From contig CAVZAR010000002.1 of assembly GCA_963773305.1 (NCBI GenBank), forward strand, positions 20,334-52,333: a stretch of DNA of 32,000 nucleotides, in the 5' to 3' direction. The notes under the pieces were generated by a model. It made no database searches, was not told where the DNA came from, and saw only the letters and a list, made by a program, of their open reading frames with translations. Shown piece by piece: positions 1-25,753 of the stretch; positions within the stretch are counted from its first letter, which is position 1, and every line of letters begins with the position of its first letter. Made by a program: the position numbers and the translations under genes. The DNA comes from an uncultured Pseudomonadota bacterium (GTDB lineage: Bacteria; Pseudomonadota; Alphaproteobacteria; Rhizobiales; Xanthobacteraceae).

Positions 1-2
1 CG

Positions 3-1520
3 GTGTCGCCCCTACGTTTCTATTGCCACACTCGCCACATTTATCTTGGCATGGCCTATCTGATCGGCTCCGGATTTCGGGCCGATCTTGGTCCGATTAC
101 CGTTGAGCTGCAAAAGGAATTGTACGGCCGTGTCCGACCCGAAGAGGCCGTGCGTCACAAGCACGACCTCGCCGCCAGTGATGCCTATGTGCGTCCGGGG
201 TTCGGATTGCGGCTTCTCTACGACGTCGTTTCCATTCTTGGCCGTGTTTGGCGGTACGTTCCGGGAGCCGCGTCGCTTCGCCGTCATGCGCTCGATGCCT
301 GCCTAACGCGCATTTTGTTCGAGCAACGTGCAACGGCTTATCAAGGGCTGTCGCCGGTTAACGGGGTGCTCAATACACTGGCGCTCTACGCCCGCGCCCC
401 GATGTCCGAGGACACGCTGGCCAGCTTCGATGGCGTAGAGACCTGGCGCTGGGACGATGAGACGCACGGTACGCGTTATGCCGGCGCCCGCTCGACGACC
501 TGGGACACGAGCTTTGCAATCCAGGCCTTGCTCGCAGGCGGCCCCGAGGCGGCGCTGCGGGAGGCGGGTGGGCTGCGGCGCGCCTACCGCAAGCTTGCCG
601 ACATGCAGATGATCTCCGAGCTCGACGAGGGGGCTGCTCAAGGGCGCGACCCAATCGTAGGCGGTTGGTGTTTCAGCAACGGGGAGCATCGGTGGCCGGT
701 GAGCGACTGTGCGGCTGAAGCCGTGATCGCTCTGCTTGATTGTCACGATGTCCCCGGATTGATTCCACAGAAAGAGCGACTGTCAAAGCCCCGGCTCGTC
801 GACGCCATGGGCTTTATTCTGAGCCGCCAGAACGCCGACGGCGGTTTTGGCACCTACGAACGACGTCGGGGCCAGCGCTTTCTCGAACATTTCAATCCAT
901 CCGAGATGTTCGGTCAATGCATGACCGAGCTTTCCTATCTGGAATGCACGGCTTCGTCGATACGCGCGCTCGGCCGTCTTAAGCGTAATGGCGACTCTGC
1001 TCAGCAGACAAATGCACAAGCCGCGATAGACCGAGGCGTGGCATTCATCTTGGGCCAGCAGAGGGCCGACGGGAGTTGGCCTGGTTTCTGGGGCATCAAC
1101 TTCATCTACGGCACATATTTCGCCCTTGCCGGACTGTTCGAAGCGGGATTGGCATCCGACCATCCGGCCTTCGCGAAAGCGCGTCGATGGCTGCAAAGCA
1201 TCCAGCATGCCGACGGAGGTTGGGGAGAGCACTTCTCTGGCTGCTTGACCGGCACATATTCGGATAATTCGTCAAGTTTGATTATCGGTACGGCCTGGGC
1301 ATGCCTGGGGCTCATGTACGCGCACGACGTTTCGTCGAATGCGCTTGATCGTGGCATCGATTACCTCCGAACGCGGCAGATGCGCGACGGCGGCTGGCCG
1401 CGAGAAGGCGTCAACGGCGTCTTCTTCGGCACGGCGATGCTCGAGTATGCGCTTTACAACAGCTACTTCCCGACAATGGCTTTGGCACTGTTTGGCAGTC
1501 GTCGTCATGGCCGGCATTGA
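3..1520 (+). CDS. Oxidosqualene cyclase (lanosterol/cycloartenol synthase type), 5'-truncated by window edge
   Basis: QW-type repeats are present (RQNADGGFG, QQRADGSWPGFWG, IQHADGGWGEH, RQMRDGGWPREG). The catalytic motif is VSDCAAE, the OSC-type VxDCTAE pattern rather than the DxDDTA of squalene-hopene cyclases. The first residues (..CHTRHIYLGMAYL..) align to the interior of cyclases, so the N-terminus lies upstream of the window. Confidence 0.9.
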   Translation: MSPLRFYCHTRHIYLGMAYLIGSGFRADLGPITVELQKELYGRVRPEEAVRHKHDLAASDAYVRPGFGLRLLYDVVSILGRVWRYVPGAASLRRHALDACLTRILFEQRATAYQGLSPVNGVLNTLALYARAPMSEDTLASFDGVETWRWDDETHGTRYAGARSTTWDTSFAIQALLAGGPEAALREAGGLRRAYRKLADMQMISELDEGAAQGRDPIVGGWCFSNGEHRWPVSDCAAEAVIALLDCHDVPGLIPQKERLSKPRLVDAMGFILSRQNADGGFGTYERRRGQRFLEHFNPSEMFGQCMTELSYLECTASSIRALGRLKRNGDSAQQTNAQAAIDRGVAFILGQQRADGSWPGFWGINFIYGTYFALAGLFEAGLASDHPAFAKARRWLQSIQHADGGWGEHFSGCLTGTYSDNSSSLIIGTAWACLGLMYAHDVSSNALDRGIDYLRTRQMRDGGWPREGVNGVFFGTAMLEYALYNSYFPTMALALFGSRRHGRH

Positions 1521-2841
1521 TTATGACGCGGTCATCGCGGGGGCCGGCGTGGCCGGAGTCGCCGCCGCCGCGGCGTTAAAGGAGCTCGGATGGTCGGTCC
1601 TCGTCATCGAACCTGGTCAACACGATGAGCGGCGCCTTGGCGGCGAATTGATTCATCCGACCGGGGTGATGGCGCTGCGTGAGCTCGGCCTGTTCTCGGA
1701 AGTCGCCTCCGAAGGAGCCGCCTCGATCGCGGGGTTCATTGCATTGCCCGGACGAGACGAAGGCTGGGCAAACATTGCACTTCCTTATTCGCAGCGAGGG
1801 GCGTATGGAACTGCGATCGCCCTCGCTCACGCACGCATCCGCGCAAGCCTGCAGAGGGCCGCTGCCCGGCTCGGCCATGCCGAAATGCTCAAGGGTGGCC
1901 GCGTGGTCGGAGTCGAAGCCGGCCGGATGCCGACGCGAGTTCGCATCCAGCACGCCGGCAGCATCTTAACGGTCAATTGCCGATTGGTCGTCGGCGCCGA
2001 CGGCGCCTCGAGTGCTGTGCGCGCTTTGGCCGGCATTTCGCACTGGCGTCGGCCGGTCTCCGCGGTCACAGGATATGTAATTAGCGACGCAAACCTGCCG
2101 GCCCGCGGATTCGGTCACGTCTTCATCGGCGGCAGCGCGCCATTGCTGGTATATGAAATTGGGGGCGGCCGCGCTCGCGTCCTTTTCGATCAGCCGATTT
2201 CGCAGTCGAACATTCCCCCCGAACAACATCGTAGCAAAGTCATCTCTGCCATTGCCTATCCCAGGCTACGCACCGAGATCGAGGCGGCGGTGGCGGAGCA
2301 GCGGGGTTTGCGATTTGTCAGCGCCGATGTGGTCGTTGAAACCGCCGCGCGCAATGGCGTCGTGCTGGTGGGCGACGCCGGAGGCAGCTGTCATCCGCTC
2401 ACCGCGACCGGAATGACCATCAGCGTGAACGATGCTCTGCGACTTCGCAACGCTTTGCGCGCGGCTGGCGACAACATCGGCGCGGCATTGTCGCGATATG
2501 GACGAGGCCGGAGACTTCCGCAGCGTACGCGTCTGCTGGTGGCATCCGCGCTGCACGATGCCTTCAGCGGGACAAGGCCTGAGCATCAGCTGATACGTGC
2601 GGGGCTCATCCGATATTGGCTGCGTGACGCGCGCGGCCGGCGGGCTTCGATGGACATCTTGGCTATGAGCGACGTTCGCCTGCTCTCCGCGTTGCGCGAA
2701 ATCCTCGTCGTCGTTCGGCATGGTATCGCGGCGAAGTCGGCTGGCTGGTCAATCGGCCGCGTCGGCGCCGGCTTGCGGCTGATGGCGGGTGTTACCGGCG
2801 TTGTCATGCGCCAGCTCAGTTTCGCGATGCGCGCCAAGTAG
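1507..2841 (+). CDS. Squalene monooxygenase (squalene epoxidase), FAD-dependent
   Basis: The ATG at 1507 gives MAGIDYDAVIAGAGVAGVAAAAAL, a GxGxxG dinucleotide fold. A GDAGGSCHPLTATGMT motif typical of the squalene epoxidase family is present. The track start at 1339 lies inside the cyclase gene and was rejected. The chosen start overlaps the cyclase stop by 14 nt. Confidence 0.85.
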   Translation: MAGIDYDAVIAGAGVAGVAAAAALKELGWSVLVIEPGQHDERRLGGELIHPTGVMALRELGLFSEVASEGAASIAGFIALPGRDEGWANIALPYSQRGAYGTAIALAHARIRASLQRAAARLGHAEMLKGGRVVGVEAGRMPTRVRIQHAGSILTVNCRLVVGADGASSAVRALAGISHWRRPVSAVTGYVISDANLPARGFGHVFIGGSAPLLVYEIGGGRARVLFDQPISQSNIPPEQHRSKVISAIAYPRLRTEIEAAVAEQRGLRFVSADVVVETAARNGVVLVGDAGGSCHPLTATGMTISVNDALRLRNALRAAGDNIGAALSRYGRGRRLPQRTRLLVASALHDAFSGTRPEHQLIRAGLIRYWLRDARGRRASMDILAMSDVRLLSALREILVVVRHGIAAKSAGWSIGRVGAGLRLMAGVTGVVMRQLSFAMRAK

Positions 2842-2852
2842 GGCACACCACC

Positions 2853-3881
2853 ATGATCCTGGTCACCGGCGCTGGCGGACATCTTGGTGCGAACCTGCTG
2901 CGAAGGCTGTTGGCCGACGGCCAGCAGGTGCGGGCCATGTTGCATACCGAGCGAGACCGGCCGAGCGTGGAAGGGCTTGTCGTCGATGTCTTCGTGGGCG
3001 ACCTGCGCGACCCGAGAGCGGCCGAAACGGCCGCGCGCGGCTGCCGGCAGATCTATCATTGCGCTGCCAAGGTATCGACGACCTATGCGAACCGCGACGA
3101 TATTTTCGACGCAAACGTGATCGCGACGCGCAACGTCCTGCGCGCCGCAAAAGCGAGCGGGGTCGAAAAGGTCGTAGTCACGGGCTCGTTCAGCGCTGTA
3201 GGCGTCCGCGACGACGGTCCGAGCGACGAAAATGACCCGTTCAACCCGCTGCAGCCTCACTTGCCGTACGGCTTCACCAAGGCTGCCGTCGAACACGAGT
3301 GTCTGAAGGCTTTCGCCGATGGGGTCCCCGTCGTGGTCGCGGTGTCGACCGCGATTGTCGGGCCCAACGATTTCAAGCCGTCGCGCATGGGGCAGGTGCT
3401 GATCCGCTTCGCTTCAGGGCGGCTGCACGCCTATGTGCCGGGCGGTTTCCCCTTCGTTGCCGCCGAGGACATTGTGCAAGGTCACTTGCTTGCCATGACC
3501 AAGGGTCGGCCTGGACAGAAATACATTTTCGCAACTTCGTTCATGAGTTTCGACGATCTGATGCAAATGTTTTCCCAGGTTACCGGGCGTCCGGCTCCGC
3601 GGCTGCGCATTCCGCCGGAGTTGATGGGTGCCCTCGCGCAGGTCGCCGGTGCGCTGCTGCCGTATCTCAAGCCGAACAGCGAGCAATTGTTGACGCCCGC
3701 GGCCATACGCATTCTACGCATGAATCGGAAGGCCGACATCAGCAAAGCACAGAGCGAGTTGGGTTTCCGGCCCACGAGCATCGAGCGCGCCATTCGCCAG
3801 GCCCATGACTGGTTCGTGGCCCGGGGAGTGATCGCCGCCCCGGTCGGTTCGGCGGCCCGGTTAGTGGAAGCGTCGCGATGA
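2853..3881 (+). CDS. NAD(P)-dependent epimerase/dehydratase (3beta-HSD / sterol C-4 decarboxylase-reductase type; SdmB-like)
   Basis: N-terminal Rossmann motif ILVTGAGGHLGANL and a YxxxK catalytic dyad (YGFTK). It sits between squalene epoxidase and CYP51, and its stop overlaps the CYP51 start by 4 nt. Confidence 0.7.
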   Translation: MILVTGAGGHLGANLLRRLLADGQQVRAMLHTERDRPSVEGLVVDVFVGDLRDPRAAETAARGCRQIYHCAAKVSTTYANRDDIFDANVIATRNVLRAAKASGVEKVVVTGSFSAVGVRDDGPSDENDPFNPLQPHLPYGFTKAAVEHECLKAFADGVPVVVAVSTAIVGPNDFKPSRMGQVLIRFASGRLHAYVPGGFPFVAAEDIVQGHLLAMTKGRPGQKYIFATSFMSFDDLMQMFSQVTGRPAPRLRIPPELMGALAQVAGALLPYLKPNSEQLLTPAAIRILRMNRKADISKAQSELGFRPTSIERAIRQAHDWFVARGVIAAPVGSAARLVEASR

Positions 3882-5227
3882 AAACGGTTCCGATGGTCGC
3901 CGGCGGCTTGCCTTATATCGGCCACGCGCTGGCCTTTAACCGGAATCCCGTAGAATTCTTGCAAAACGGCAAGGCGCTGCACGGCGACCTGTTTCGTTTC
4001 CGGCTGCTGGGGAACACCGTCTATGCACTGATGTCGAGTCGGGGCAACGAAGCGGTGTTTCGCGCCTCCGATGGCGTACTCGATTTCCGCGAAGCTTACC
4101 GCTTCACAATCCCGATTTTCGGCAAGGGTGTCGCCTATGATGTTGCGCCCGAGCTGATGGATCAGCAACTCGAGTTAATCCATCCCGGCCTGCGCGACGA
4201 GGCGATGCAGAATTATGCCGGGATCATGGCCGATGAAGTCGAGCGCTTCGCCACACGTCTTGGCGGCGGAGGCGAGATTGATCTCTTGACCGCGCTCAAT
4301 GAGCTCACGACCTTTATCGCCGGCCGTTGCCTCCTCGGCGAAGAGTTCAGAAGCCGTTTGTCGGCGGAATTCGCAGGGCTTTACCGCGATCTCGAGGGCG
4401 GCATCAATCTCGTCGCGTTTGTTGCGCCGTATTTCCCTACCGCCAAAAACCGACGCCGCGACCGGGCTCGGCGCGAGGTCGCCGCGATAATCGCCGATCT
4501 CATCGCAGGCCGTCGCCGCAGTGAAAAGGGGGAAGACGACTTCCTTTCCGTCCTGATGGCGGCGCGCTACGCCGACGGCACATCGTTGACGGACGATGCC
4601 ATCGCCGGCCTGCTGCTCACCCTGCTGTTTGCCGGCCAGCACACCAGCGCCGTCATGGCATCATGGTTGGGCGTGATGCTATCCAAGCATCGTGATCATG
4701 GAGCGGCCGTCGCCCGCGAAGCATCCGACATGCTCGGCAGTGAAGTTCGTCTGGCCAAGCTGAAGCGGATGCGGTTGATGGAATATTGCCTGAAAGAAGT
4801 GGAGCGGCTTTACCCGCCCCTCGTCATGCTGATGCGGAAGACGGTGCAGCCATTCTCGGTCGGCGACATCGTCATACCGCCGGGCAATCTGGTCATGGTA
4901 TCGCCCGGCGTGAGCCATCGCCAGCGCGAGGTCTTTCGAAATCCCGATGTTTTCGATCCAGCCCGTTTTGCGCCGCCGCGCGAAGAGGATCGCAAAACGC
5001 CTTATTCGCTGATCGGGTTCGGTGGAGGCAAGCATCGGTGCATCGGCATGGCGTTCGCCCATCAGCAGATCAAGGTCATCTGGGGCATTCTCCTGCAGCG
5101 TTTCGAATTCGAGCTGGTCGAGCCACAGGTCGAGCCCGACTATGCGACCTTTGTGGTGGGTCCGCGGCAGCCATGCCGCGTACGTTACCGCCGCCGGCAG
5201 TCCGAATCCTTGGCTGAGGCAAGCTGA
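3878..5227 (+). CDS. cyp51: Cytochrome P450 sterol 14-alpha-demethylase (CYP51)
   Basis: Heme-thiolate motif FGGGKHRCIGMAFA, CYP51-specific I-helix signature AGQHTS (LLFAGQHTSAV), and B'-helix signature YRFTIPIFGKGVAYDV. Confidence 0.9.
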   Translation: MKTVPMVAGGLPYIGHALAFNRNPVEFLQNGKALHGDLFRFRLLGNTVYALMSSRGNEAVFRASDGVLDFREAYRFTIPIFGKGVAYDVAPELMDQQLELIHPGLRDEAMQNYAGIMADEVERFATRLGGGGEIDLLTALNELTTFIAGRCLLGEEFRSRLSAEFAGLYRDLEGGINLVAFVAPYFPTAKNRRRDRARREVAAIIADLIAGRRRSEKGEDDFLSVLMAARYADGTSLTDDAIAGLLLTLLFAGQHTSAVMASWLGVMLSKHRDHGAAVAREASDMLGSEVRLAKLKRMRLMEYCLKEVERLYPPLVMLMRKTVQPFSVGDIVIPPGNLVMVSPGVSHRQREVFRNPDVFDPARFAPPREEDRKTPYSLIGFGGGKHRCIGMAFAHQQIKVIWGILLQRFEFELVEPQVEPDYATFVVGPRQPCRVRYRRRQSESLAEAS

Positions 5228-6840
5228 TGCGCACGCCCCGACCGATCGACTGGTTTCTCATTGGGCTCGTGGTGTTCTTCATTGCGTTCAACGCTACGGT
5301 TGATCGCTATTGGGTGACGCATGCGCACGAATTGCCGGCGCTGACCAAGACCGACCTTTTCGCGCGCATGTTCCAACATTATGCAGCCGCCGACCGAGGC
5401 TATTTCGACGAGGTCACCCAGGCCGAACTTGCGCTGGAAACGATCAACAGCACAATCACGCAAGCCTTCAACATCTGGCTGCTGATCGCGCTGTTCGCGC
5501 GCTGGCCGGTGCGCGTGCCGTTGCAGATCGCGATCGGCTCCTGGGTATCGTATTCGGTCTTGTTCAACTGGTGGTGCGCCCTGATCGCCGGTTTTCCCGG
5601 CATGGATCACAAGACGCCATGGAACTTCATCGTTTTGGTTGGAGCCAATCTGCCGTGGCTGGCTGGCCATCTCTACATCGCTTTCGCTGGCGCCCGCGAA
5701 TTCTTAAAGGTCGAGCCGCTCCCCGCCCCCGCCATGCGGAAGACCGCGCCGCTACCTCCCGATTTCTCCACGGCGCGCAATCTTCGCCAGAAAGCCCGCG
5801 CCGCGGGGCTTGACCCCGACCATTGGTACGCCTTCACGCGCGCCAAAGATCTCAAGCCGGGACAGGTGGTGGCTTCGAGCTTCCAAGGCGAAGCGATCGC
5901 GATCTATCGCGCTGCCGATGGCAAAGTTCGCGCCATGACCGACCGCTGCCTGCATCGCGGCATTCGGCTGTCGTTGGGCGAGGTGAGGGACTGCGGGCTC
6001 GTCTGCGCCTACCACGGTTGGGCCTATGGTGAAGATGGTAAGCTCGTCGATGTTGCGCACGAAAGGTTTGGCCGACCGCTGCCGGACGTCGGCGTCAGGG
6101 TATTCCCCGTGCGCGAGCGCTACGGCTTGATCTGGGTCTTTCCCGGCGATGCGGTGCGCGCCGAATCTGTGCCCATGCCCGAAATTCCGGAGATCGAGGG
6201 CCCGGATGCGTGGGCCTTCACGGCAATTGAATATACCTGGGATGCGCACCACTCGATCATCATCGATAACCTCAGTGATCTCACGCACGCCTATCTTCAC
6301 CGCCGCTACCGGCCGTTCCACGATCCCGTCCTGACGAAAAACGAGCCCAGCGATAACTCGGTGTACTGCATCTACGAATTGTCATTGCTAGACGGTCCGA
6401 TGAAGCGTCTGATCGACCGCGGCGCCAAGATGGACCTGATGGAGTTGTGCCTCGAGTACCCCTACCAGTGGGGCAATACCGGCGGTCGTGTAAAGCATTG
6501 GGTTTTTCTGACGCCGTTAAACGACCATCAAACGCGCGTCTACTTTATCTTCTATTTCAATCAGGTACAGGTGCCTTTCACGCCCTTTCATTTTCCGCAG
6601 CGGGTGATGGGCTGGGTGATCGGCATCTTCAACCCGATCTTCATCAAGCCGGTGACGAGTCAGGACGGCGATGCCGTCGCATGGGAACAGGAGGGCTACG
6701 ACACCGAGTTGGGCCGTCCCGTCATCGAACTCAATCCGGCGGTCGCCCAGTTCCAGCAGTTGATCGTGCGCAAGTGGCAGAACTATCTCGACCGCGTCTC
6801 CGGCGGGTCGGCTGCGAAGCATGAAAGCGCATTGACATGA
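5227..6840 (+). CDS. Fusion protein: N-terminal EBP/EXPERA-like 4-TM domain plus C-terminal Rieske [2Fe-2S] non-heme iron oxygenase (SdmA-like candidate sterol C-4 methyl oxidase)
   Basis: Rieske motif CLHRG...(17)...CAYHGW and a downstream DNLSDLTHAYLH metal-binding-like motif. The first ~165 aa are hydrophobic and paralogous to the next gene (shared ADRGYFDEV, RWP, YSV, NLPWL). The start overlaps the CYP51 stop (TGATG). Confidence 0.75.
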   Translation: MRTPRPIDWFLIGLVVFFIAFNATVDRYWVTHAHELPALTKTDLFARMFQHYAAADRGYFDEVTQAELALETINSTITQAFNIWLLIALFARWPVRVPLQIAIGSWVSYSVLFNWWCALIAGFPGMDHKTPWNFIVLVGANLPWLAGHLYIAFAGAREFLKVEPLPAPAMRKTAPLPPDFSTARNLRQKARAAGLDPDHWYAFTRAKDLKPGQVVASSFQGEAIAIYRAADGKVRAMTDRCLHRGIRLSLGEVRDCGLVCAYHGWAYGEDGKLVDVAHERFGRPLPDVGVRVFPVRERYGLIWVFPGDAVRAESVPMPEIPEIEGPDAWAFTAIEYTWDAHHSIIIDNLSDLTHAYLHRRYRPFHDPVLTKNEPSDNSVYCIYELSLLDGPMKRLIDRGAKMDLMELCLEYPYQWGNTGGRVKHWVFLTPLNDHQTRVYFIFYFNQVQVPFTPFHFPQRVMGWVIGIFNPIFIKPVTSQDGDAVAWEQEGYDTELGRPVIELNPAVAQFQQLIVRKWQNYLDRVSGGSAAKHESALT

Positions 6841-7334
6841 TGCGCACCGACAAAATAGCGCTCTCGTTAATCGCCTTCTTTGTCGTCGTGGCGCTGACGA
6901 TCGAACTGTATTGGCTTGTCCATGCCTTCGATTTGGCGAGCAGCAATAGTTGGCTCGCCCGCGGCTTCGCATTTTACGGCCGAGGCGACCGCGGCTACTT
7001 CGACGAGGTGAGCTGGTTCGAGGTCGGGCTCGAAAGCTTCAACATCATTTTCACGGTTCCGGTGTATCTCGTGTTGGGATATGCGATCGTCGCCGGGCGC
7101 GGGTTCCGCTGGCCCTTGCAGCTTTGTCTGGGTGCTTACACGACTTATTCCGTCGTGCTCTACCTGACGGCAAAGCATGTCACCGGCTATGTCGAGATGC
7201 CGAAACACGACCTCGCGTCGTTTCTAATTCTGTACGTTCCCAACCTTCCTTGGCTCTTTGGAAACGGGTATCTGACGCTCGATGCGGCAAGGGTCATCCT
7301 CCGCGCTGTGCGATTGCGCGAAAGGGGGGCGTGA
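6837..7334 (+). CDS. EBP-like (emopamil-binding-protein / sterol Delta8-Delta7 isomerase family) small membrane protein
   Basis: 165 aa with about 4 hydrophobic helices. YGRGDRGYFDEV resembles the EBP Y-x-K-G-D-S-R-Y segment. LESFN, RWPLQLCLGAYTTYSVVLYL and NLPWLFGNGYLTLDA align, from memory, to EBP METIT, ...LQLVVSVGQIYGDVLYF and NALWLVLPGVLVLDA. ATGA overlap with the upstream gene and TGATG overlap with the downstream gene. Confidence 0.65.
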   Translation: MMRTDKIALSLIAFFVVVALTIELYWLVHAFDLASSNSWLARGFAFYGRGDRGYFDEVSWFEVGLESFNIIFTVPVYLVLGYAIVAGRGFRWPLQLCLGAYTTYSVVLYLTAKHVTGYVEMPKHDLASFLILYVPNLPWLFGNGYLTLDAARVILRAVRLRERGA

Positions 7335-8401
7335 TGCAGTTCGCGCCGGTGACCTTGCAATCTGTCGGCCTTTCGGTACTCGGCATCGCGGGTTTTATTG
7401 TTGCCTTATTCGTATCGTCGCTCGTGGTGCCGGGTCCGGAATACGAGGTGACGGCCCGCGGCGGCGAGCGCATTCGCTACCGGCTCAATGGCTTGGCGCT
7501 GCTCGCAATAACGATCGCGATAGCGGCGCTCGCGCAATGGCGTGGACCCGGTCTGGCGCCGCTGGCGCGAGACATCTGGTCGCTTTTTATCGCGGCGAAC
7601 TTGTTGGCTTGGCCGGCGGCCTTCCTGCTGGTCGCCCGCGCGGGAGCGTGGCGGAAGAGCAGCGTCGCCGATTATTTCTACGGGGTCGAGAGGAACCCGC
7701 AGCTCTTCGGCATCGATTTGAAAATGTTCTCCTATCGTCCGTCGTTGATCGGGCTCGCGCTCGTCAACGCCTCTTTTGCGGCGTGGCAGTGGCAGGTCGC
7801 CGGGACGCTCAGCCTGGCGATGACCTGCTATCAGGTTTTCACGCTGCTCTATATCGTGAACTATTTCCAGTTCGAGAGCGGCATGCTTTTCACCTGGGAC
7901 ATCATCGAAGAAAAGTTCGGCTGGATGCTGGTTTGGGGCGACTATGTGCTGGTGCCCTTTTTCTACGCTTTGCCGGCCGCGTTCGTGCTTTCGCGGCCGG
8001 GTGATGTGACCTTCGCCGGAGCGGCGGCGCTCGCGGTGCTTTACCTGCTGGGTTTTTGGATTTTCCGCGGCGCCAATTCCCAGAAGCATCGCTTCAAGCG
8101 CCAGCCGGGCGCGCCGGTGTGGGGGCGTTCGCCCAGCGTCATCGGGGGCAAATTGCTCGCTTCGGGCTTTTGGGGCATCGGCCGCAAGCTCAACTACACC
8201 GGCGAATTCCTGATGTACCTGAGCTGGACGCTGCTGGCGGGCTTCCGGTCCGTTGTGCCGTATCTGCTGCTGCTGTGGCTGCTGCTGCTGCTTATGCAGC
8301 GCGCCAGCCGCGACGACCGCCGCTGCCGCGAAAAATATGGCCAGCTTTGGGATGAGTACTGCCGCAAGGCGCGGTTTCGAATGTTTCCGTACATCTATTG
8401 A
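7334..8401 (+). CDS. Sterol reductase, ERG4/ERG24 family (C-14 reductase most likely; DHCR7 or C-24(28) reductase not excluded)
   Basis: Family signatures LLASGFWGIGRKLNYTGEFLMYLSW and the C-terminal RDDRRCREKYGQLWDEYCRKARFRMFPYIY. The chosen start is the ATG at 7334 (MQFAPVTLQ...). The track's 6950 start would overlap the whole EBP-like gene. Confidence 0.85.
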   Translation: MQFAPVTLQSVGLSVLGIAGFIVALFVSSLVVPGPEYEVTARGGERIRYRLNGLALLAITIAIAALAQWRGPGLAPLARDIWSLFIAANLLAWPAAFLLVARAGAWRKSSVADYFYGVERNPQLFGIDLKMFSYRPSLIGLALVNASFAAWQWQVAGTLSLAMTCYQVFTLLYIVNYFQFESGMLFTWDIIEEKFGWMLVWGDYVLVPFFYALPAAFVLSRPGDVTFAGAAALAVLYLLGFWIFRGANSQKHRFKRQPGAPVWGRSPSVIGGKLLASGFWGIGRKLNYTGEFLMYLSWTLLAGFRSVVPYLLLLWLLLLLMQRASRDDRRCREKYGQLWDEYCRKARFRMFPYIY

Positions 8402-8404
8402 GGC

Positions 8405-9661
8405 GTGACGATGAACCGTGATCGAATTTACGACGTATGCATCGTCGGTGCCGGACCGGCCGGAGCCACGTGCGCCTTCTACCTCGCCAGCCATGGGCAC
8501 GATGTCGCGCTCCTGGAACGCAAGCGATTCCCGCGCGACAAGATTTGTGGCGACGCGATCTGTGCGCAGGCACAGCTGCATCTGAAACGCATGGGCGTCT
8601 TGCAGCAGATCATCGATAACGACGAGGGGCACTTTGCAGCTGTTGGCGGCATGGTCAGCCCGCGCGGCTACAGCTACATCGCCAGCTCTGCCGAACATCT
8701 TAAATCGAGCCAAGTTATCGCTATTAAACGTATGTTTCTTGACGTGCGTATCGCGTACGCAGCTAGGTCGGCCGGCGCAAATTTGGTAGAGGATGTCGCG
8801 GTTGCCGGGGCTGATTTCGACAAAACGAGCGGAACTTGGACCGTCACAACGGAAAATGGACAGCCGCCGATTCGCGCCCGCGTGCTTGTGGCAGCCGATG
8901 GCGCGCTCTCTCGTCTTGCGCGCCGCCTCGGCTATCTCGCATCGCCGCCGGATGCGGTATGCAGCCGCGCCTATGTGCGTGCCGACTCGACGAATTTCGA
9001 TGCCGACGGCGTGGTCTATTATCCAAAGCGCCTGCTCCCGGGATATTGCGCGATCTTTCGAGAAGCGCGCGGGGAGTTGAATTTCTGCGTCTATATTATC
9101 CCGGGCGGTAAGACCGGGATCGACGATCTGCGCACTGTACATCACGAGATCTTGCACAAGGATCCGCACGTCAGCCGTGCCATTGGCCCAAAAGCCGAAA
9201 TCGATCCGATGAAAGGTGCACCATTGCGGCTCGGCGGTATTGCGCGCAGCTACGGTGACCACTTTCTTATCGTCGGTGACGCCGCCGGACATATCGACCC
9301 GCTCACCGGCGAAGGTATTCAATTCGGTATGGACGCCGCGGAATATGCCGCCGACACGCTCCATGCTGCGCTGGCGGTCGGCGACCTCAGCGCAAGTGCT
9401 TTGAAAATCTACCAGGACCGCTGGATGAAAGCTTTCGGGCGTGACTTTTCCTGGTCATCGGCGATTGCGCGCTTTTATGCGCGGTTCCCCGGTTTTCTCG
9501 ACGCCGGTGCCTTGACCTTGCAGCGGCTGGGCCCACCTTTTCTGGCCGAATGGGCGCAGATCATGACCGGAGCTAGGCCAAAGACGGATTTCTTCAAGCC
9601 GGGAGTGTTCGCGCCGATCATGCGCGATTTTGTGTCCTTGCACTTGAGATCCGCGGCATGA
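8405..9661 (+). CDS. Geranylgeranyl-reductase-family FAD-dependent oxidoreductase
   Basis: YDVCIVGAGPAGATCAFYLASHGHDVALLERKRFPRDKICGDAI is the classic GGR-family N-terminus, and GDAAGHIDPLTGEGI is the second FAD motif. Start is GTG 8405 or ATG 8411. Confidence 0.7.
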   Translation: MTMNRDRIYDVCIVGAGPAGATCAFYLASHGHDVALLERKRFPRDKICGDAICAQAQLHLKRMGVLQQIIDNDEGHFAAVGGMVSPRGYSYIASSAEHLKSSQVIAIKRMFLDVRIAYAARSAGANLVEDVAVAGADFDKTSGTWTVTTENGQPPIRARVLVAADGALSRLARRLGYLASPPDAVCSRAYVRADSTNFDADGVVYYPKRLLPGYCAIFREARGELNFCVYIIPGGKTGIDDLRTVHHEILHKDPHVSRAIGPKAEIDPMKGAPLRLGGIARSYGDHFLIVGDAAGHIDPLTGEGIQFGMDAAEYAADTLHAALAVGDLSASALKIYQDRWMKAFGRDFSWSSAIARFYARFPGFLDAGALTLQRLGPPFLAEWAQIMTGARPKTDFFKPGVFAPIMRDFVSLHLRSAA

Positions 9662-10686
9662 ACGCGCAAGACAAACGCGGCAACCCGGGCATTGCGCAAT
9701 TGCTATCGTCGAATTCTGATCGCAACGGCGTCGAGGCGGCGGTTACCGACTATCTGGCGCATTACCACGGCACGCTCGCCGACCGCCAGTCGGCCTATGC
9801 GGACGTGGTGAACGGCTACTTCGACCTTGCGACCGACTTTTATGAGTATGGTTGGGGCCAATCGTTTCACTTCGCGCAAATAGCCGCGGGCGAATCGTTC
9901 GCGCAAGCAATCATCCGCCACGAGCGTCAGCTTTTTCATAGGCTCGGAGCGCAATCGAACATGACCGTGCTTGATGTCGGGTGCGGAGTAGGCGGCCCGA
10001 TGCGGAATCTCGCGCGCCTCGCGGGGTGCAAAGTTGTTGGCATCAACAACAATGCCTATCAGGTTTGGCGTGCAAAGCAGCTGAACGCCGAGGCCGGTAT
10101 TGACGAGCAATGTCGCGTCGTGCCCGGTGATTTCATGGCCATGCCGCTCTCGGACGGCACGATGGACGGAGCATACGCGATTGAGGCAACAGTGCACGCG
10201 CCGAACTGGGGTCGCGTGTTTCGCGAGGTCTGGCGGGTGCTCAGGCCCGGCGCCTCCTTTGCACTTTACGACTGGTGTCTGACCGATGTTTTCGATGTTG
10301 GAAATCCGCACCATCAGGAAATTAAGCGACGAATTGTTGCGGGCAACGGGTTGATCGACATAGGGACGTCTAGGCAATTGCTAGAGGCGCTGGGTGGGGC
10401 TGGATTCGATCTGCTTGAACATTATGACGCTGCTGCACGAGGCGGCGCGCCGTGGTTCGAGCCGCTGGCGCCGCGCAGCGTCTCGCTCGCGGGGTTCCGC
10501 AGCTCGGCCGTCGGTCGGAAAGTGACAAACTGGTCGCTGAAGGCGCTAGAGCTGTTGCGCATCGCGCCAAAGGGTACATTCAACGTGGCAGTCTTCCTCG
10601 ATAAAGCCGCGGTTGCGCTGGTAGAGGGAGGAAGGAGTGGGATTTTTACGCCGATGTATTTCGTGCATGCCCGTAAGCCCGGTTGA
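9658..10686 (+). CDS. Sterol 24-C-methyltransferase (SMT / ERG6 family)
   Basis: SMT region-I signature YEYGWGQSFHF, SAM motif VLDVGCGVGGPMRNL, and an SMT-type C-terminus GIFTPMYFVHARKP. ATGA overlap with the upstream gene. Confidence 0.9.
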   Translation: MNAQDKRGNPGIAQLLSSNSDRNGVEAAVTDYLAHYHGTLADRQSAYADVVNGYFDLATDFYEYGWGQSFHFAQIAAGESFAQAIIRHERQLFHRLGAQSNMTVLDVGCGVGGPMRNLARLAGCKVVGINNNAYQVWRAKQLNAEAGIDEQCRVVPGDFMAMPLSDGTMDGAYAIEATVHAPNWGRVFREVWRVLRPGASFALYDWCLTDVFDVGNPHHQEIKRRIVAGNGLIDIGTSRQLLEALGGAGFDLLEHYDAAARGGAPWFEPLAPRSVSLAGFRSSAVGRKVTNWSLKALELLRIAPKGTFNVAVFLDKAAVALVEGGRSGIFTPMYFVHARKPG

Positions 10687-10689
10687 GCC

Positions 10690-11937
10690 ATGCGGGTGGC
10701 GGTCGTTGGCGGAGGTGTTGCAGGTCTCACAACGGCATGGCTACTGGCGGAAACTTGCGATGTAACGCTTTTCGAACGCGGTCCGAGGCTGGGCGGCCAC
10801 GCCCACACTGTCGACATCATGGAAGATGGAAAGCAAATTGCGATCGATGTCGGCGCGGAATTTTTCGGCAATCGGCAGACTTATCCGCGATTTCATCGTC
10901 TGCTTGACCTTCTTTCGGTGCCGACCCGTTCCTTTTCGGCGACCGCGACGGTCTATTGTCCCGAGAACGGAGACAAATTGGTACTGCCGCCGTGGCGTGC
11001 CGGCGTGGTCGACTGGTCGGCGCTGAACCTTCGTGGGCTTTTGAATCTTTTGCGCTTCGCCGAATTTTCCGCAGCGGTCGGCTTCTCGAACGAAAACGCG
11101 CTTCGGCGAGAGACGATTAAGCAGTTTCTTGAACGGAAGTCGGCGCCAGATTTTAGAGACCGTTTACTGGTGCCGTTTCTGCTTGGACAGTTCGGAATGC
11201 CGCGCGACGCATTCAACGATTGTCTTGCCTACGACACGCTTAAATACTGCATGCAGGCTGGCGCCCTTCGACTAACTGCGCCGCGAATGACGGAAGTCGT
11301 GGGTGGGACGCGGAGTTATGTCGAGGCGCTGGAGGGCGAACTGCCGCGAGAGTGTGTGGTCCGGGACGCGTTGGTCACGCGCATTGAGTCGTCCCGTGAA
11401 GGACTCTTTCTCTGCCTTGACGACGGGGAACGGTATGCGGCGGATCACGTTGTGATAACCGCGGGCGCCAAGGACGCTGCTCGCTTATGCAAGACGAGTG
11501 GGCTCGCAAATGAAGCCCGCATTTTCGGCGGTGTCGATACGTTCGAAGCTGAATTGGTAGTTCACGGTGATGCTTCGGTCATGCCTGCCGAACCGAAAAG
11601 CTGGTCGGTCGCCAATTTTCGCGCGTCCGGCGATAGCGCAGCGTTGACGGTCTGGAAGCCTTGGAAAAGTAAGACCGTGTTCCGGAGTTGGACGACCGGA
11701 AAGGGGCATACTTACCGGAGCGAACACGGCAGATTCTGCTTTCGCCATCCAGTCGGCAATTCAAAATATTATTGGGTTCAGGATGCAATCCGCGTGCTGC
11801 AAGGCACAAAGAGTATCTGGTTTGCGGGAGCTTGCGTGCAAGACAATGACTGTCACGAAAGCGCTGTTATGTCGGCGCTCGCCGTGGCGCGCAGGCTTGC
11901 ACCGGGCAGCGGTCGAATTGTACAGCTCGGTCAGTAA
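10690..11937 (+). CDS. NAD(P)/FAD-dependent oxidoreductase (amine-oxidase/CrtI superfamily, COG2907-like), function unknown
   Basis: N-terminus MRVAVVGGGVAGLTTAWLLAETCDVTLFERGPRLGGHAHTV is a dinucleotide fold plus the GGH motif typical of this family. It is the last gene of the sterol operon and starts 3 nt after the SMT stop. Confidence 0.65.
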   Translation: MRVAVVGGGVAGLTTAWLLAETCDVTLFERGPRLGGHAHTVDIMEDGKQIAIDVGAEFFGNRQTYPRFHRLLDLLSVPTRSFSATATVYCPENGDKLVLPPWRAGVVDWSALNLRGLLNLLRFAEFSAAVGFSNENALRRETIKQFLERKSAPDFRDRLLVPFLLGQFGMPRDAFNDCLAYDTLKYCMQAGALRLTAPRMTEVVGGTRSYVEALEGELPRECVVRDALVTRIESSREGLFLCLDDGERYAADHVVITAGAKDAARLCKTSGLANEARIFGGVDTFEAELVVHGDASVMPAEPKSWSVANFRASGDSAALTVWKPWKSKTVFRSWTTGKGHTYRSEHGRFCFRHPVGNSKYYWVQDAIRVLQGTKSIWFAGACVQDNDCHESAVMSALAVARRLAPGSGRIVQLGQ

Positions 11938-14273: not shown

Positions 14274-14453
14274 CGTATCCTCCACCCCAAAGTCCGAAAT
14301 ATTCAGCCGATAAATACTTTGGCGCTTTGGCGACGCAATTTTCAAGAGCCTTGCGCGCTAGGAGCGAGGCAGCGCAATCGGGGTCTGATTGCCGCGGTCC
14401 TCCGCCAGCCTCTGGCTTGCGCAAGTCTTCAATAGGACGCGCCGCGGCTGACG

Positions 14454-23216: not shown

Positions 23217-23286
23217 CGCCGCCTCGGATCATTTGCGCTGTGCGCCTGGCTCACAATTAGGGTAAGCTATTGCGATTATTGGAGCA

Positions 23287-23838: not shown

Positions 23839-23935
23839 GCCATGGCGCAGCGCATAAACGCACCCGGCGCCGGAGGCGCCCATAATGCAAAGGTCATGAA
23901 CCGCTTCGAATCTGACCAAGCGGCTGGTCGGCCAT

Positions 23936-25744: not shown

Positions 25745-25753
25745 GTACATACT

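Follow-up and report, generated by a model that had tools for sequence, protein, structure and literature searches.

We found that the 32,000-nucleotide stretch of DNA analyzed here (the window) very likely carries a translationally coupled de novo sterol operon, following the route proposed below, from an uncultured, probably alphaproteobacterial organism. Clusters of this type are already known from metagenomes; this one stands out for two flavoproteins of an atypical kind and for a pair of isomerase-like EXPERA membrane domains, one of them joined to a demethylase. A preliminary description of this DNA had proposed ten same-strand genes with tight or overlapping junctions. Ten plus-strand open reading frames lie between positions 3 and 11937 (Table 1); a Pfam search recovered all of the families claimed earlier, and Pfam, NCBIfam and PDB searches upheld the family assignments of all ten genes. 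The junctions from G1 to G10, read off the sequence, were −14, +11, −4 (ATGA), −1 (TGATG), −4, −4 (or −1), +3, −4 and +3 nt, bearing out the close spacing (−14 to +11 nt). For G2, the start was set at the ATG giving a 14-nt overlap with the end of G1, and G7 starts at either GTG 7331 or ATG 7334. No promoter-like sites were found inside the ten-gene block, and terminator-like matches within it occurred at the chance level (18 versus 15.3 ± 5.2 in shuffles).

Table 1. Genes and domains discussed in the text, with their positions in the window and the basis of each assignment.
Feature	Positions	Strand	Basis
G1, oxidosqualene cyclase, C-terminal 505 codons, predicted lanosterol type	1..1520 (ORF from 3)	+	TIGR03463
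G2, squalene monooxygenase (epoxidase)	1507..2841	+	Pfam SE PF08491 and FAD_binding_3
G3, SdmB-like NAD(P)-dependent SDR (C-4 decarboxylase/3-ketoreductase)	2853..3881	+	SdmB NF052578
G4, CYP51 sterol 14alpha-demethylase, without ferredoxin fusion	3878..5227	+	p450 9e-61; PDB matches
G5, EXPERA/EBP-like and SdmA-type Rieske fusion	5227..6840	+	Pfam EBP, Rieske, VanA_C
G5 N-terminal EXPERA/EBP-like domain, 4-TM	residues 1 to about 160-165 (nt 5227-5706)	+	Pfam EBP; flexible linker, then Rieske part
G6, free 165-aa 4-TM EXPERA protein	6837..7334	+	Pfam EBP 8.7e-8
G7, sterol Δ14-reductase (ERG24/MaSR1 type)	7331..8401	+	Pfam ERG4_ERG24 3.2e-69
G8, GGR-family FAD enzyme, putative sterol side-chain C=C reductase	8405..9661	+	TIGR02032
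G9, sterol C-24 methyltransferase (ERG6/SMT type)	9658..10686	+	Sterol_MT_C and SAM-methyltransferase domains
G10, amine-oxidase/PPO/CrtI-fold flavoprotein	10690..11937	+	Pfam Amino_oxidase 1.3e-20
MFS transporter, convergent with operon	11980-13296	−	MFS_1 3e-42
LysR regulator, convergent with operon	13293-14345	−	LysR HTH and substrate domain

Matching gene order was found in one Alphaproteobacteria MAG and one JGI contig. The MAG locus (L005) contains nine of the operon genes in this order with 59-79% amino acid identity, plus an upstream sdmA, and L006 contains all ten genes with 58-80% identity. This conservation far exceeds chance, and because the order recurs in the MAG and the JGI contig we consider the operon to be real and conserved. 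Its core also recurs in L002, L004 and L017. G1 is cut by the window edge, with its 5′ end outside, and in the relatives one extra gene, a standalone canonical sdmA, precedes the cyclase gene, so the operon probably begins beyond the window. Thus, the ten genes described previously are present, and the operon judged from its relatives probably contains eleven, the additional one being the canonical sdmA upstream. The earlier description of an alphaproteobacterium-like organism was too firm; the host is probably alphaproteobacterial, judged only from the taxonomy given for the closest GTDB locus (~71% identity), and the GC3 of the operon (0.61-0.80) is unlike that of confidently assigned genes further right (0.82-0.90). 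Because of this difference, the operon may have been acquired horizontally. The adjacent MFS and LysR genes have GC3 values of 0.67-0.72 and may belong to one acquired block with the operon; they are not kept beside related operons. Pfam searches revealed no squalene synthase in the window, and no ferredoxin or reductase for the CYP51 or Rieske enzyme.

The early steps of the pathway were assigned from profile and structure searches. G1 matched SQHop_cyclase_C (6e-55) and the NCBIfam oxidosqualene cyclase model TIGR03463 osq_cycl over model positions 146-633 (4.7e-174, 580 bits, versus 157 bits for hopene cyclase), and its best PDB match was human lanosterol synthase 1W6K (1.8e-79, versus 1e-34 for SHC); the proposed oxidosqualene cyclase therefore withstood comparison with hopene cyclases. 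All of the motifs quoted in the preliminary description were present in the translations, including VSDCAAE of G1, which carries the catalytic Asp. Val occupies the G1 position that corresponds to human V453, with Ala at position 381 and His at position 449. Val at the 453 equivalent is a mark of lanosterol synthases among the bacteria tested (Wei 2016). G2 matched the SE domain with 75 bits (5.9e-21, cutoff 20.1) and is 65-66% identical to the same-position genes of L005 and L006. The top PDB match of G4 was Methylococcus capsulatus CYP51 6MCW (3.3e-105), followed by Mycobacterium tuberculosis and eukaryotic CYP51, and CYP51 accounted for most of the best-scoring matches; AGQHTS and FGGGKHRCIG are both present. 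In contrast to the ferredoxin-fused methanotroph CYP51 of 551 aa, G4 has 449 aa. The best match of G7 was the Δ14-sterol reductase 4QUV (3.3e-63), and the second was also a Δ14-reductase. G9 contains Sterol_MT_C (6.8e-24, 84 bits, cutoff 21.7) and the sterol-binding motif YEYGWGQSFHF.

G3 contains Epimerase (2e-32) and 3Beta_HSD (4e-16) domains, and its top NCBIfam model was SdmB (2.5e-85, 287 bits), with HpnA second at 250 bits. The C-terminal part of G5 (residues ~186-537) contains Rieske (6.8e-20) and VanA_C domains and matched SdmA NF052579 (5.8e-92, 308 bits). The SdmA and SdmB models were thus top-scoring for G5 and G3, yet both scores are about half of the NCBIfam equivalog cutoffs (600 bits in each case), which counts against the assignment. 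The fused catalytic domain of G5 shares 47-55% identity with canonical SdmAs, compared with 56-69% between the canonical SdmAs; by these values it is a divergent paralogue. Of the two EBP-like domains described previously, both were found, one of them being the N-terminus of the Rieske protein rather than a separate protein (EBP 2e-6, 28.6 bits, cutoff 25.7). In the AlphaFold2 model of G5, four helices at residues 9-160 (block pLDDT mostly 81-94) are followed by a linker at 164-172 (below 50) and a Rieske fold resembling alpha3-type oxygenases. About 24 orthologue clusters of this fusion type were found, all metagenomic.

HMM and PDB searches supported the epoxidation, cyclization, C-14 demethylation, Δ14 reduction, SdmAB-type C-4 demethylation and C-24 methylation steps of the pathway proposed earlier. 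The remaining step, Δ8-Δ7 isomerization, is insecure because both EXPERA domains lack the His76 of human EBP, which is essential there, the H76A protein being dead. The sole meaningful PDB match of G6 was human EBP 6OHT (2.9e-4). G6 keeps the equivalents of EBP E80, E122, N193 and W196, with Ala in place of His76. None of the EXPERA members examined has this His: the G6 type carries Ala there, and the type of the G5 N-terminus carries Asn, Ser, Ala or Pro. The G6 family is rare (70 matches among 1.84 billion representatives). Of 22 informative metagenome loci, 20 have an ERG24 gene directly downstream of the G6 type. The G5N and G6 types are distinct paralogues, and of the 20 metagenome loci in which the sequence upstream of G6 is visible, 19 carry both. 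EXPERA domains are also paired in human EBP, which forms a homodimer, and in TM6SF2, which contains two EXPERA repeats. Elsewhere, EXPERA domains occur in tandem G5N-G6 fusion proteins and in ERG24-EXPERA and EXPERA-P450 architectures. We propose that G6 pairs with the N-terminal domain of G5 and is a putative Δ8-Δ7 isomerase subunit. The carbocation-binding pocket is consistent with catalysis, as the E80, E122, N193 and W196 equivalents are almost invariant in the G6 type; in addition, polar pocket residues D26, E71, N74, W144 and H148 are invariant across 21 G5 fusion orthologues.

It is possible, though somewhat unlikely, that the EXPERA pair instead has no catalytic function and acts as a membrane anchor or as a scaffold presenting sterols, in which case the Δ8 bond would be kept and the substrate of G10 would not be the sterol of this operon. 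The consistent loss of His76 fits such a role, and tandem or separate G5N-like copies (P0366, P0368 and L029) have lost the acidic residues too, as a structural partner would. Moreover, EXPERA domains are fused to soluble enzymes that require membrane access, namely a Rieske enzyme and a P450, and the Calothrix sterol cluster has an ERG2-type isomerase gene besides an EXPERA gene. On the other hand, ERG24 is another fusion partner of EXPERA, and this integral membrane enzyme, which acts one step before isomerization, requires no anchor; the operon in the window contains no other isomerase of the ERG2 or EBP families (Pfam). The Δ8 bond is retained in many bacterial sterols. Since both domains lack His76, the pathway may have no isomerase step, leaving a Δ8 product.

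The preliminary description left two enzymes without a role. For one of these, G8, a relevant activity is known, as Bsr, a member of the GGR family, is a characterized sterol C-24 reductase (Lee & Welander 2025); G8 itself falls in a different subfamily. It matched FAD_binding_3 (9e-18) and TIGR02032 GG-red-SF (171.5 bits, cutoff 158.8), with MenJ second. The Cys of its KICGD motif lines up with the active-site Cys of GGR, and YCAIFR stands where YxWxFP is expected. The latter motif is said to be kept in Bsr homologues (Lee & Welander 2025), and its absence counts against a Bsr-like role. GYCA[LIV]FR was present in 84 of the 120 G8 homologues listed (at least 55% identity), with close variants in most others, placing G8 by its motif in a Calothrix-type YCAxFR subfamily; a protein recorded as only 24% identical to the tested Bsr is probably the Calothrix relative of G8. 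The G8 gene adjoins the SMT gene in the window, L005, L006 and L002, and a methyltransferase gene is its neighbor in five loci including Calothrix.

G10 is a putative FAD-dependent sterol dehydrogenase (desaturase). Its AlphaFold2 model (pLDDT 92.7) was closest to LkcE (TM 0.83), followed by PPO (0.70). Homology searches placed it in a tight clade of ~40 metagenomic proteins (E ≤ 1e-68), separated by a gap from COG2907-type proteins at 27-30% identity, one of which is encoded in a ufaD-like AO-DUF1365-CMAS operon. Genes of this clade lie in the sterol-gene surroundings of six other loci (L006, L002, L007, L011, L017 and L027); counting against a sterol role, they sometimes lie away from any sterol genes (L008 and the P0148 locus). 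By sequence, then, G10 is a member of a clade associated with sterol clusters, and the fatty-acid desaturase UfaD is a distant relative of this clade. We consider it improbable that G10 is an HpnE-like squalene-forming enzyme, or that it serves the Rieske and P450 enzymes in electron transfer or as a redox partner. HpnE (hydroxysqualene dehydroxylase) was its top NCBIfam match (5.6e-16) and PPO also matched, but both matches were weak and far under the cutoffs (59 versus 283 bits for HpnE), and no hpnC or hpnD lies nearby. The operon has no reductase gene for its Rieske and P450 enzymes, and KshA-type Rieske genes lie beside G10-clade genes in L002, L007 and L017; a redox partner is nevertheless disfavored by the amine oxidase/PPO-type fold with one dinucleotide-binding motif, as the nearest structures are substrate oxidases (LkcE, PPO and MAO) rather than ferredoxin reductases. 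By context, the nearest characterized family is the C-C desaturase UfaD.

The HpnA score of G3 and the weak HpnE match of G10, as well as acyl-CoA dehydrogenase, enoyl-CoA hydratase and KshA-like genes around the G10-clade gene of L011, suggestive of steroid catabolism, could point to a cluster for hopanoids or other triterpenoids, or for modification or catabolism of exogenous steroids. Such a function is very improbable, given that the cyclase is of the oxidosqualene type by score and contains DCAAE, not DxDD, that the SE-domain epoxidase, CYP51, Δ14-reductase and Sterol_MT_C methyltransferase are all biosynthetic, and that the operon contains no KshA, KstD or beta-oxidation genes. That the stretch is mis-binned eukaryotic DNA, through contamination or a transfer in the very recent past, is extremely improbable despite the classically eukaryotic CYP51, ERG24, SMT and EBP-like enzymes, as the genes lack introns and overlap by 1-14 nt, SdmA/SdmB is a bacterial C-4 demethylation system, the flanking genes are typically bacterial (LysR, MFS, beta-CASP and enolase-superfamily), the best-matching CYP51 and Δ14-reductase structures are bacterial, and the operon proteins are located on a 438,935-bp contig.

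From the families, motifs and conserved gene order of this sterol operon, we infer the following route. Squalene produced elsewhere in the genome would be epoxidized by G2 and cyclized by G1 to lanosterol, as predicted by the Val at the 453 equivalent. G4 would remove the 14-methyl group and G7 would reduce the Δ14 bond, while the C-4 methyls would be removed by the divergent fused G5 and the canonical SdmA expected upstream, together with SdmB-like G3. The EXPERA domains of G5 and G6 would form a membrane heterodimer that holds the Rieske enzyme, which would otherwise be soluble, at the sterol-containing membrane and probably shifts Δ8 to Δ7, using a Glu/Glu/Asn/Trp pocket without the His76 of EBP. 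G9 would then methylate C-24, G8 would reduce a side-chain double bond, and G10, a UfaD/CrtI-like flavoprotein, would probably add another C=C bond. The expected product is a 4,14-demethylated 24-methyl(ene) Δ7- or Δ8-sterol.

The earlier view of the operon as an undescribed system did not hold, since published bacterial clusters already combine SMT, sdmAB and erg homologues (Brown 2023), a 21 kb Calothrix sterol cluster has been published (Lee 2023), and three uncharacterized genes have been noted as accompanying SMT (Hoshino & Gaucher 2021). In the Calothrix cluster, the GGR is 57% identical to G8, with an SMT-like gene directly after it, the SdmB-position gene is 59% identical to G3, and the SdmA-position gene is 49% identical to the G5 C-terminal domain; the Calothrix SdmAB pair strips both C-4 methyls in E. 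coli (Lee 2023). What is new here, as judged from sequence comparisons, is the pair of EXPERA paralogues without His76 just upstream of the reductase gene, the divergent fused SdmA, the YCAxFR subfamily of GGR proteins and the G10 clade distantly related to UfaD.

Ten plus-strand ORFs occupy the left end of the window and bear out the ten-gene, same-strand operon of the preliminary description. Reading the sequence from the oxidosqualene cyclase (OSC) gene (G1) to the gene for a flavoprotein with an amine-oxidase fold (G10), we found that the nine successive junctions measured -14, +11, -4, -1, -4, -4, +3, -4 and +3 nt. Promoter and terminator scans told us little: no sigma-70-like site was detected inside the ten-gene block, and terminator-like hairpins within the block occurred at chance level. 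Scanning the window for Rfam families and tRNAs gave no match. Pfam searches recovered the family that had been named for each of the ten products. Neither redox partners nor a squalene synthase are encoded within the window.

Features of the window and of related loci, with the Pfam matches of the ten operon products
Feature	Sequence	Coordinates (strand)	Match or remark
Ten-gene sterol operon	window	1-11937 (+)	ten ORFs
G1, oxidosqualene cyclase	window		SQHop_cyclase_C, 6e-55; 5' end cut by window edge
G2, squalene epoxidase	window		SE, 6e-21
G3, SdmB-like SDR	window		Epimerase / 3Beta_HSD
G4, CYP51	window		p450, 9e-61
G5, EXPERA-SdmA fusion	window		Rieske, VanA_C and EBP together in a single 537-aa protein
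G6, free EXPERA protein	window		EBP; 165 aa
G7, predicted delta14-reductase	window		ERG4_ERG24, 3.2e-69
G8, GGR-family flavoprotein	window		FAD_binding_3 (GGR type)
G9, sterol methyltransferase	window		Sterol_MT_C, 7e-24
G10, amine-oxidase-fold flavoprotein	window		Amino_oxidase, 1.3e-20
MFS transporter and LysR regulator	window	11980-14345 (-)	convergent with operon
Enolase-superfamily gene	window	22095-23216 (-)	muconate cycloisomerase-like
546-aa ORF	window	22245-23885 (+)	
Two adjoining low-GC ORFs	window	25073-26761 (+)	223 and 335 aa
Tripartite efflux genes	L001	1-84	
Tripartite efflux genes	L002	1-2791	
Tripartite efflux genes	L004	750-2968; 13270-15997	
Tripartite efflux genes	L017	11571-17613	
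Second ERG4_ERG24 paralogue	L002	18019-19326 (+)	435 aa
KshA_C-type Rieske gene	L002	14465-15481 (-)	
KshA_C-type Rieske gene	L007	11269-12273	
KshA_C-type Rieske gene	L017	18682-19851 (-)	
KshA_C-type Rieske gene	L009 (Calothrix)	7834-8850	
Second amine-oxidase-fold gene	L007	12288-13871	
Second amine-oxidase-fold gene	L011	11263-12819	
ERG2/sigma-1-type isomerase gene	L009 (Calothrix)	7220-7837	
Short EXPERA gene	L009 (Calothrix)	8952-9362	

The exact proteins of the window belong to a single NCBI/ENA contig of 438,935 bp, and the gene order was conserved in related loci. L005, a MAG of the uncultured Alphaproteobacteria bacterium MFD04752.bin.2.14 and the sole relative found in a scan of GTDB-representative contigs, carried the nine genes from the cyclase to the sterol methyltransferase (SMT) in identical order at 59-79% identity and lacked G10. 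The order of all ten genes was kept in L006, a JGI contig (58-80% identity), and the operon core was present but rearranged in the loci L002, L004 and L017. A standalone Rieske gene was located directly 5' of the cyclase gene in L005, where it was the first gene of the operon, and in L002; in L004 it followed the SdmB and CYP51 genes. Its position 5' of the cyclase in relatives indicates that an eleventh gene probably lies just beyond the left edge of the window. GC3 ranged from 0.61 to 0.80 for the operon genes versus 0.82 to 0.90 for genes with a confident assignment between 14 and 29 kb, and the L004 operon has PSCyt2, PSD1 and DUF1501 neighbours, which we take to be planctomycete-type. The GC3 difference together with these neighbours suggests horizontal spread, so that an alphaproteobacterial origin of the operon's host is only tentative.

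Inspection of the surrounding DNA revealed an MFS transporter gene and a LysR regulator gene that converge with the operon and have an operon-like GC3 (0.67-0.72), unlike the genes further right. This pair may belong, as exporter or regulator, to the same acquired block as the operon; it was not conserved beside the related operons. Two adjoining ORFs with a GC content of 0.47-0.51, against a window mean of about 0.63, had no Pfam, NCBIfam or PADLOC match and look like a small foreign island. An ORF of 546 aa (GC3 0.61) was without a family match, the true gene at that position being the enolase-superfamily gene on the minus strand. Finally, MacB/FtsX-type ABC, HlyD-like and OEP genes, which constitute a tripartite efflux system, repeatedly flanked related sterol clusters and were absent from the window. 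Such a flanking system might serve to export sterols to the outer membrane.

Assignment of the core enzymes to subfamilies, here and throughout, was based on pairwise identities and motifs. The preliminary description had taken G1 for an OSC and not a squalene-hopene cyclase (SHC), and the scores agree: the NCBIfam OSC model TIGR03463 gave 580 bits (this partial gene lacks model positions 1-145, and the curated full-length cutoff is 851 bits) versus 157 bits for hopene cyclase. Similarly, in the PDB G1 matched human lanosterol synthase at 1.8e-79 versus 1e-34 for SHC. Its VSDCAAE motif aligned with human VSDCTAE (D455), which is of the V-x-D-C-T/A-A-E type and not the DxDD type of SHC, and several Q-x-x-D-G-G/S-W (QW) repeats were present. 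The residue aligned to human V453 was Val; in every bacterium tested, Val was correlated with lanosterol and Ile with cycloartenol (Wei 2016). A hopanoid cluster, to which HpnA and HpnE matches could have pointed, was rejected in view of the OSC and SHC scores and the presence of squalene epoxidase (SQMO), CYP51 and SMT.

Most of the top-scoring PDB matches of G4 were CYP51s, the best being the Methylococcus capsulatus enzyme (6MCW, 3.3e-105), whereas non-CYP51 P450s scored 1e-35 or weaker. G4 contained the CYP51 signature, consisting of AGQHTS in helix I and the heme-Cys loop, and unlike methanotroph CYP51 it had no ferredoxin fusion. The best PDB match of G7 was the delta14-sterol reductase 4QUV (3.3e-63), and the second match was likewise a delta14-reductase. 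G9 gave 84 bits with Sterol_MT_C (cutoff 21.7), also contained Methyltransf_11/25 domains, and carried the sterol-binding motif YEYGWGQSFHF (YEYGWG-x-SFHF type). As predictions from sequence, epoxidation by G2, cyclisation by G1, C-14 demethylation by G4, delta14 reduction by G7, C-4 demethylation with SdmA/SdmB chemistry by G5 and G3, and C-24 methylation by G9 are all well supported. We also observed that L002 encodes a second ERG4_ERG24 paralogue, 30% identical to G7, after its SMT and GGR genes, which reveals a split of this family among relatives. Because this extra paralogue is a candidate delta7- or delta24(28)-reductase, the L002 sterol may be more fully tailored than that of the window organism.

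SdmA and SdmB were the top NCBIfam models for the Rieske domain of G5 (308 bits) and for its SDR partner G3 (287 bits), which is encoded two genes upstream; these scores are about half of the equivalog cutoffs (600 bits each) and do not reach them. The Rieske motif CLHRG...CAYHGW and the mononuclear-iron His motif DNLSDLTHAYLH of G5 were both invariant in 21 orthologues. The SdmA domain of G5 and G3 were 49% and 59% identical, respectively, to the products of the SdmA- and SdmB-position genes of the Calothrix sterol cluster (L009), whose SdmAB pair strips both C-4 methyls in E. coli (Lee, Wei & Welander 2023, PMC10202945). By pairwise identity the fused SdmA catalytic domains formed a group of their own, being 59-73% identical among themselves and 47-55% identical to canonical SdmAs, which were 56-69% identical to one another. 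The standalone copy of the relatives was a canonical SdmA, 56-66% identical to Calothrix SdmA. Two SdmA paralogues and one SdmB would represent a fourth way in which bacteria arrange C-4 demethylation. As a separate observation, the canonical SdmA that stands alone in L005 shared 65% identity with a 374-aa Rieske protein of Bradyrhizobium diazoefficiens (P0035), a surprising match because this bacterium produces hopanoids and tetrahymanol and is not known to produce sterols.

The remaining domain of G5, an N-terminal EXPERA (EBP-like, 4-TM) domain (G5N), and the free EXPERA protein G6 scored 28.6 and 32.9 bits, respectively, with the Pfam EBP model (cutoff 25.7), and human EBP was the sole meaningful PDB match of G6. 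Alignment with human EBP showed that the equivalents of E80, E122, N193 and W196 are E/E/N/W in G6 and D/E/N/W in G5N, and these carbocation-pocket residues were nearly invariant in family alignments. The equivalent of His76 was Ala in G6 and its orthologues and Asn in G5N, with Asn, Ser, Ala or Pro across G5N-type domains; His76 is the proposed proton donor of EBP, and the H76A variant is dead (Long et al.). With four TM helices each, the bacterial EXPERA domains do without TM1 of EBP. The predicted structure of G5 comprised four confident helices that a disordered linker connects to an alpha3-type Rieske fold.

An exhaustive HMMER search yielded only 70 relatives of G6 among 1.84 billion representatives. 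Some proteins contained tandem EXPERA domains, with an N-half that was G5N-like (33-56% identity) and a C-half that was G6-like (45-53%). In addition, one protein (P0382, 573 aa) carried EXPERA at the C-terminus of an ERG4_ERG24 reductase and another (P0394, 676 aa) at the N-terminus of a P450 with the CYP51-like heme loop FGGGKHRCLG. Thus, this rare bacterial domain is joined to at least three different sterol enzymes: SdmA, ERG24 and P450. In a metagenome scan for the context of G6 that comprised 27 loci, the ERG24 gene was directly 3' of G6 in 20 of the 22 informative loci. The 5' neighbour was the EXPERA-SdmA fusion in 14 loci, while five had CYP51 followed by a separate G5N-like EXPERA gene. 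In some of these separate-copy loci, as in some of the tandem proteins, the G5N-like copy no longer had its acidic residues.

Human EBP forms a homodimer, and two EXPERA repeats are present in TM6SF2. In our model the two EXPERA paralogues would pair as a heterodimer in which the G6 type would be the conserved subunit bearing the pocket, and the pair would be physically placed between CYP51/SdmA and ERG24. An alpha3 trimer carrying three EXPERA domains incapable of symmetric self-pairing would explain the ever-present co-encoded partner. On balance we lean toward the pair being a putative His76-independent delta8->delta7 isomerase; a function solely as a sterol anchor or presenting scaffold is the less probable alternative and a tentative one. 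A third idea, that one EXPERA domain is a cyclopropyl-isomerase analogue on a cycloartenol route, was dropped because residue 453 of the cyclase is Val, the bacterial lanosterol indicator.

The GGR-family protein G8 scored 171.5 bits with TIGR02032 (cutoff 158.8), and MenJ was the next model. The Cys of its KICGD motif aligned with the active-site Cys of the archaeal GGR 3OZ2. In G8, YCAIFR replaces YxWxFP, a substrate-positioning motif reported to be retained in homologues of Bsr (Lee & Welander 2025, PMC12004948). Among the 120 listed homologues with 55% identity or more, 84 had GYCA[LIV]FR and the majority of the others a close variant of it. G8 was 57% identical to the GGR of the Calothrix sterol cluster, which is most likely the Calothrix entry of Table S2 that is only 24% identical to the tested Bsr (PMC12004948). 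The preliminary description had left the role of G8 unassigned. That is outdated for the family, which includes the demonstrated GGR-type sterol C-24 reductase Bsr of S. amylolyticus. Even so, G8 is not simply Bsr: the motif difference and the 24% identity, inferred via the Calothrix protein, made a plain Bsr orthologue less likely. In five clusters (the window, L005, L006, L002 and Calothrix) the GGR gene adjoined a gene for an SMT or an SMT-like protein, which suggests that G8 reduces a double bond in the methylated side chain. Its putative substrate may be the 24(28) or the 24(25) bond.

The AF2 model of G10 (pLDDT 92.7) gave TM scores of 0.83 to LkcE and 0.70 to PPO, and a PDB fold search returned only generic amine-oxidase-fold enzymes. 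About 40 metagenomic proteins formed the G10 clade (E <= 1e-68), separated by a score gap that extended to 1e-40; beyond it were generic predicted NAD/FAD-binding proteins 27-30% identical to G10. One such non-clade relative (27% identity) is encoded in an AO-DUF1365-CMAS operon (L010) whose layout matches ufaD-ufaO; there is no DUF1365 gene in the window. G10-clade members were found in sterol-gene neighbourhoods of six other loci. The gene followed the SMT gene in L006, was close to genes for SMT and GGR in L002, L017 and L027, and was beside a KshA-type Rieske gene in L002, L007 and L017. In L007 and L011 it was near ERG2/EBP genes and 3beta-HSD-like or short-chain dehydrogenase genes. Sterol genes were not found near two further clade members. 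We propose that G10 is a putative FAD-dependent sterol dehydrogenase (desaturase), which might act at C-22, at C-5 or at another position. An HpnE-like or reductase-partner role is less likely, and a reductase serving the Rieske and P450 enzymes is unlikely on fold.

Two other gene types of these neighbourhoods are worth recording. KshA_C-type Rieske genes, distinct from SdmA, recurred in sterol clusters and none was present in the window operon; their products may be candidate sterol desaturases or hydroxylases. A second, larger amine-oxidase-fold gene (518-527 aa) overlapped the G10-type gene directly on its 3' side in two loci, which suggests a two-flavoprotein module in some relatives.

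The kind of system described here is already known from SMT-containing metagenomic clusters, the Calothrix cluster and cholesterol-making myxobacteria, and three uncharacterised genes have been noted to accompany SMT (Hoshino & Gaucher 2021). The part of the literature that was searched contained no report of the EXPERA-SdmA fusion, of the obligate His76-less EXPERA pair and its other fusions, of the divergent second SdmA, of the YCAxFR GGR subfamily or of the G10 clade. There are essentially no reports of sterol tailoring from Alphaproteobacteria: sterol genes were described as 'nearly absent in Alphaproteobacteria' (Hoshino & Gaucher 2021), the sole characterised alphaproteobacterial producer, Methyloceanibacter, makes cycloartenol only, and one alphaproteobacterial Bsr homologue, from Lichenifustis, appears in a supplementary table. 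With a complete tailoring pathway in this class, the range over which the pathway is known would grow, and additional horizontal spread would be evident. Moreover, side-chain-alkylated steranes are taken as eukaryote biomarkers, and de novo synthesis of side-chain-alkylated sterols has so far been shown in no cultured bacterium (Brown 2023, PMC10070321). The compact, colinear operon of 10-11 genes is a directly testable route to bacterial 24-methyl, 4,14-demethylated sterols, and it offers candidates for bacterial steps without an assigned enzyme: the EXPERA module as C-8 isomerase or scaffold and the G10 clade as a flavin-dependent sterol desaturase.

Combining these elements leads to a speculative reading that, judged as a whole, we consider improbable: soil bacteria of this lineage would synthesise 24-methyl sterols resembling ergosterol or brassicasterol de novo, with at least four non-eukaryotic steps. 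These would be (i) a His76-independent delta8-delta7 isomerase formed by an EXPERA heterodimer that nucleates a membrane metabolon through its fusion or gene adjacency to SdmA, CYP51 or ERG24, (ii) a second, neofunctionalised SdmA for the second C-4 methyl of delta7 sterols, in plant-like order, (iii) a GGR of the YCAxFR type for reducing the methylated side chain, and (iv) a UfaD-like flavoprotein that desaturates sterols (at C-22 or C-5) in an oxygenase-independent manner, an activity unknown until now. If this were true, GGR, SMT and the flavoprotein would be the bacterial analogue of ERG4, ERG6 and ERG5.

Among known systems, the metagenomic and MAG clusters with functional bacterial SMTs combine SMT with sdmA, sdmB and erg homologues, implying de novo synthesis of side-chain-alkylated sterols in uncultured bacteria (Brown et al. 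2023, PMC10070321). The sources listed in that publication include a hot-spring sediment metagenome, MAGs of Chlamydiae, Nitrospira, Sandaracinus and Spirochaetes, and sponge symbionts; the text and supplements consulted name neither Alphaproteobacteria nor EBP, Rieske fusions, GGR or amine oxidases. Methylococcus capsulatus, like the window, has a Rieske oxygenase and an SDR for C-4, and its CYP51 (6MCW) is the closest solved structure to G4. However, M. capsulatus takes off just one of the C-4 methyls, has its CYP51 fused to a ferredoxin and relies on an NTF2-family 8,14-reductase (8,14-Bsr) instead of ERG24, whereas in the window CYP51 is unfused, the reductase is of the ERG24 type, and EXPERA, SMT and GGR genes are present in addition.

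The 21-kb cluster of Calothrix sp. NIES-4105/4071 (L009; PMC10202945), of which the SdmAB pair and the OSC have been experimentally tested, shares SQMO, OSC, SdmB-like, CYP51, SdmA and EXPERA genes with the window, and its GGR gene, too, lies immediately ahead of a methyltransferase gene, here an SMT-like one. Amino acid identities between the two were 57% for GGR, 59% for SdmB, 54% for CYP51, 49% for the SdmA domain, 41% for OSC and 31% for the methyltransferase. The Calothrix cluster is looser, with another order and other spacing, and it contains a squalene synthase, an ERG2-type isomerase, two KshA-type Rieske genes and an FAD_binding_4/ALO oxidoreductase. It lacks an EXPERA-SdmA fusion and a second EXPERA partner beside ERG24, and no G10-type flavoprotein is encoded within 10 kb. 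We also noted that its ERG2/sigma-1-type isomerase gene occurs together with a short EXPERA gene, so that both isomerase families coexist in one bacterial cluster.

At the level of single enzymes, G8 and Bsr of Sandaracinus amylolyticus (PMC12004948) are both GGR-family FAD enzymes of sterol clusters with the active-site Cys and MenJ as the nearest named relative; they differ in that the G8 subfamily has YCA[LIV]FR and Bsr homologues reportedly retain YxWxFP, and in the coupling of G8 to an SMT gene. In the furan fatty-acid pathway, UfaM is a SAM-dependent lipid C-methylase and UfaD a phytoene-desaturase-like NAD/FAD flavoprotein that desaturates beside the new methyl-branched olefin produced by the methylase (Lemke et al. 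2020, PMC7380195). G10 resembles UfaD in its amine-oxidase/CrtI-like FAD fold but shows only about 27% identity, belongs to a separate clade, lacks a DUF1365 partner and has sterol rather than fatty-acid neighbours. Lastly, G5N and G6 share with human EBP and its EXPERA superfamily (TM6SF2, sigma-2/TMEM97) the EXPERA domain and the residues E80 (Asp in G5N), E122, N193 and W196, and the G5N/G6 pair, like the tandem proteins of bacteria, has a parallel in the EBP dimer and the TM6SF2 double repeat. In contrast to EBP, the bacterial domains have neither TM1 nor His76 and constitute a rare subfamily with fusions to SdmA, ERG24 or P450.
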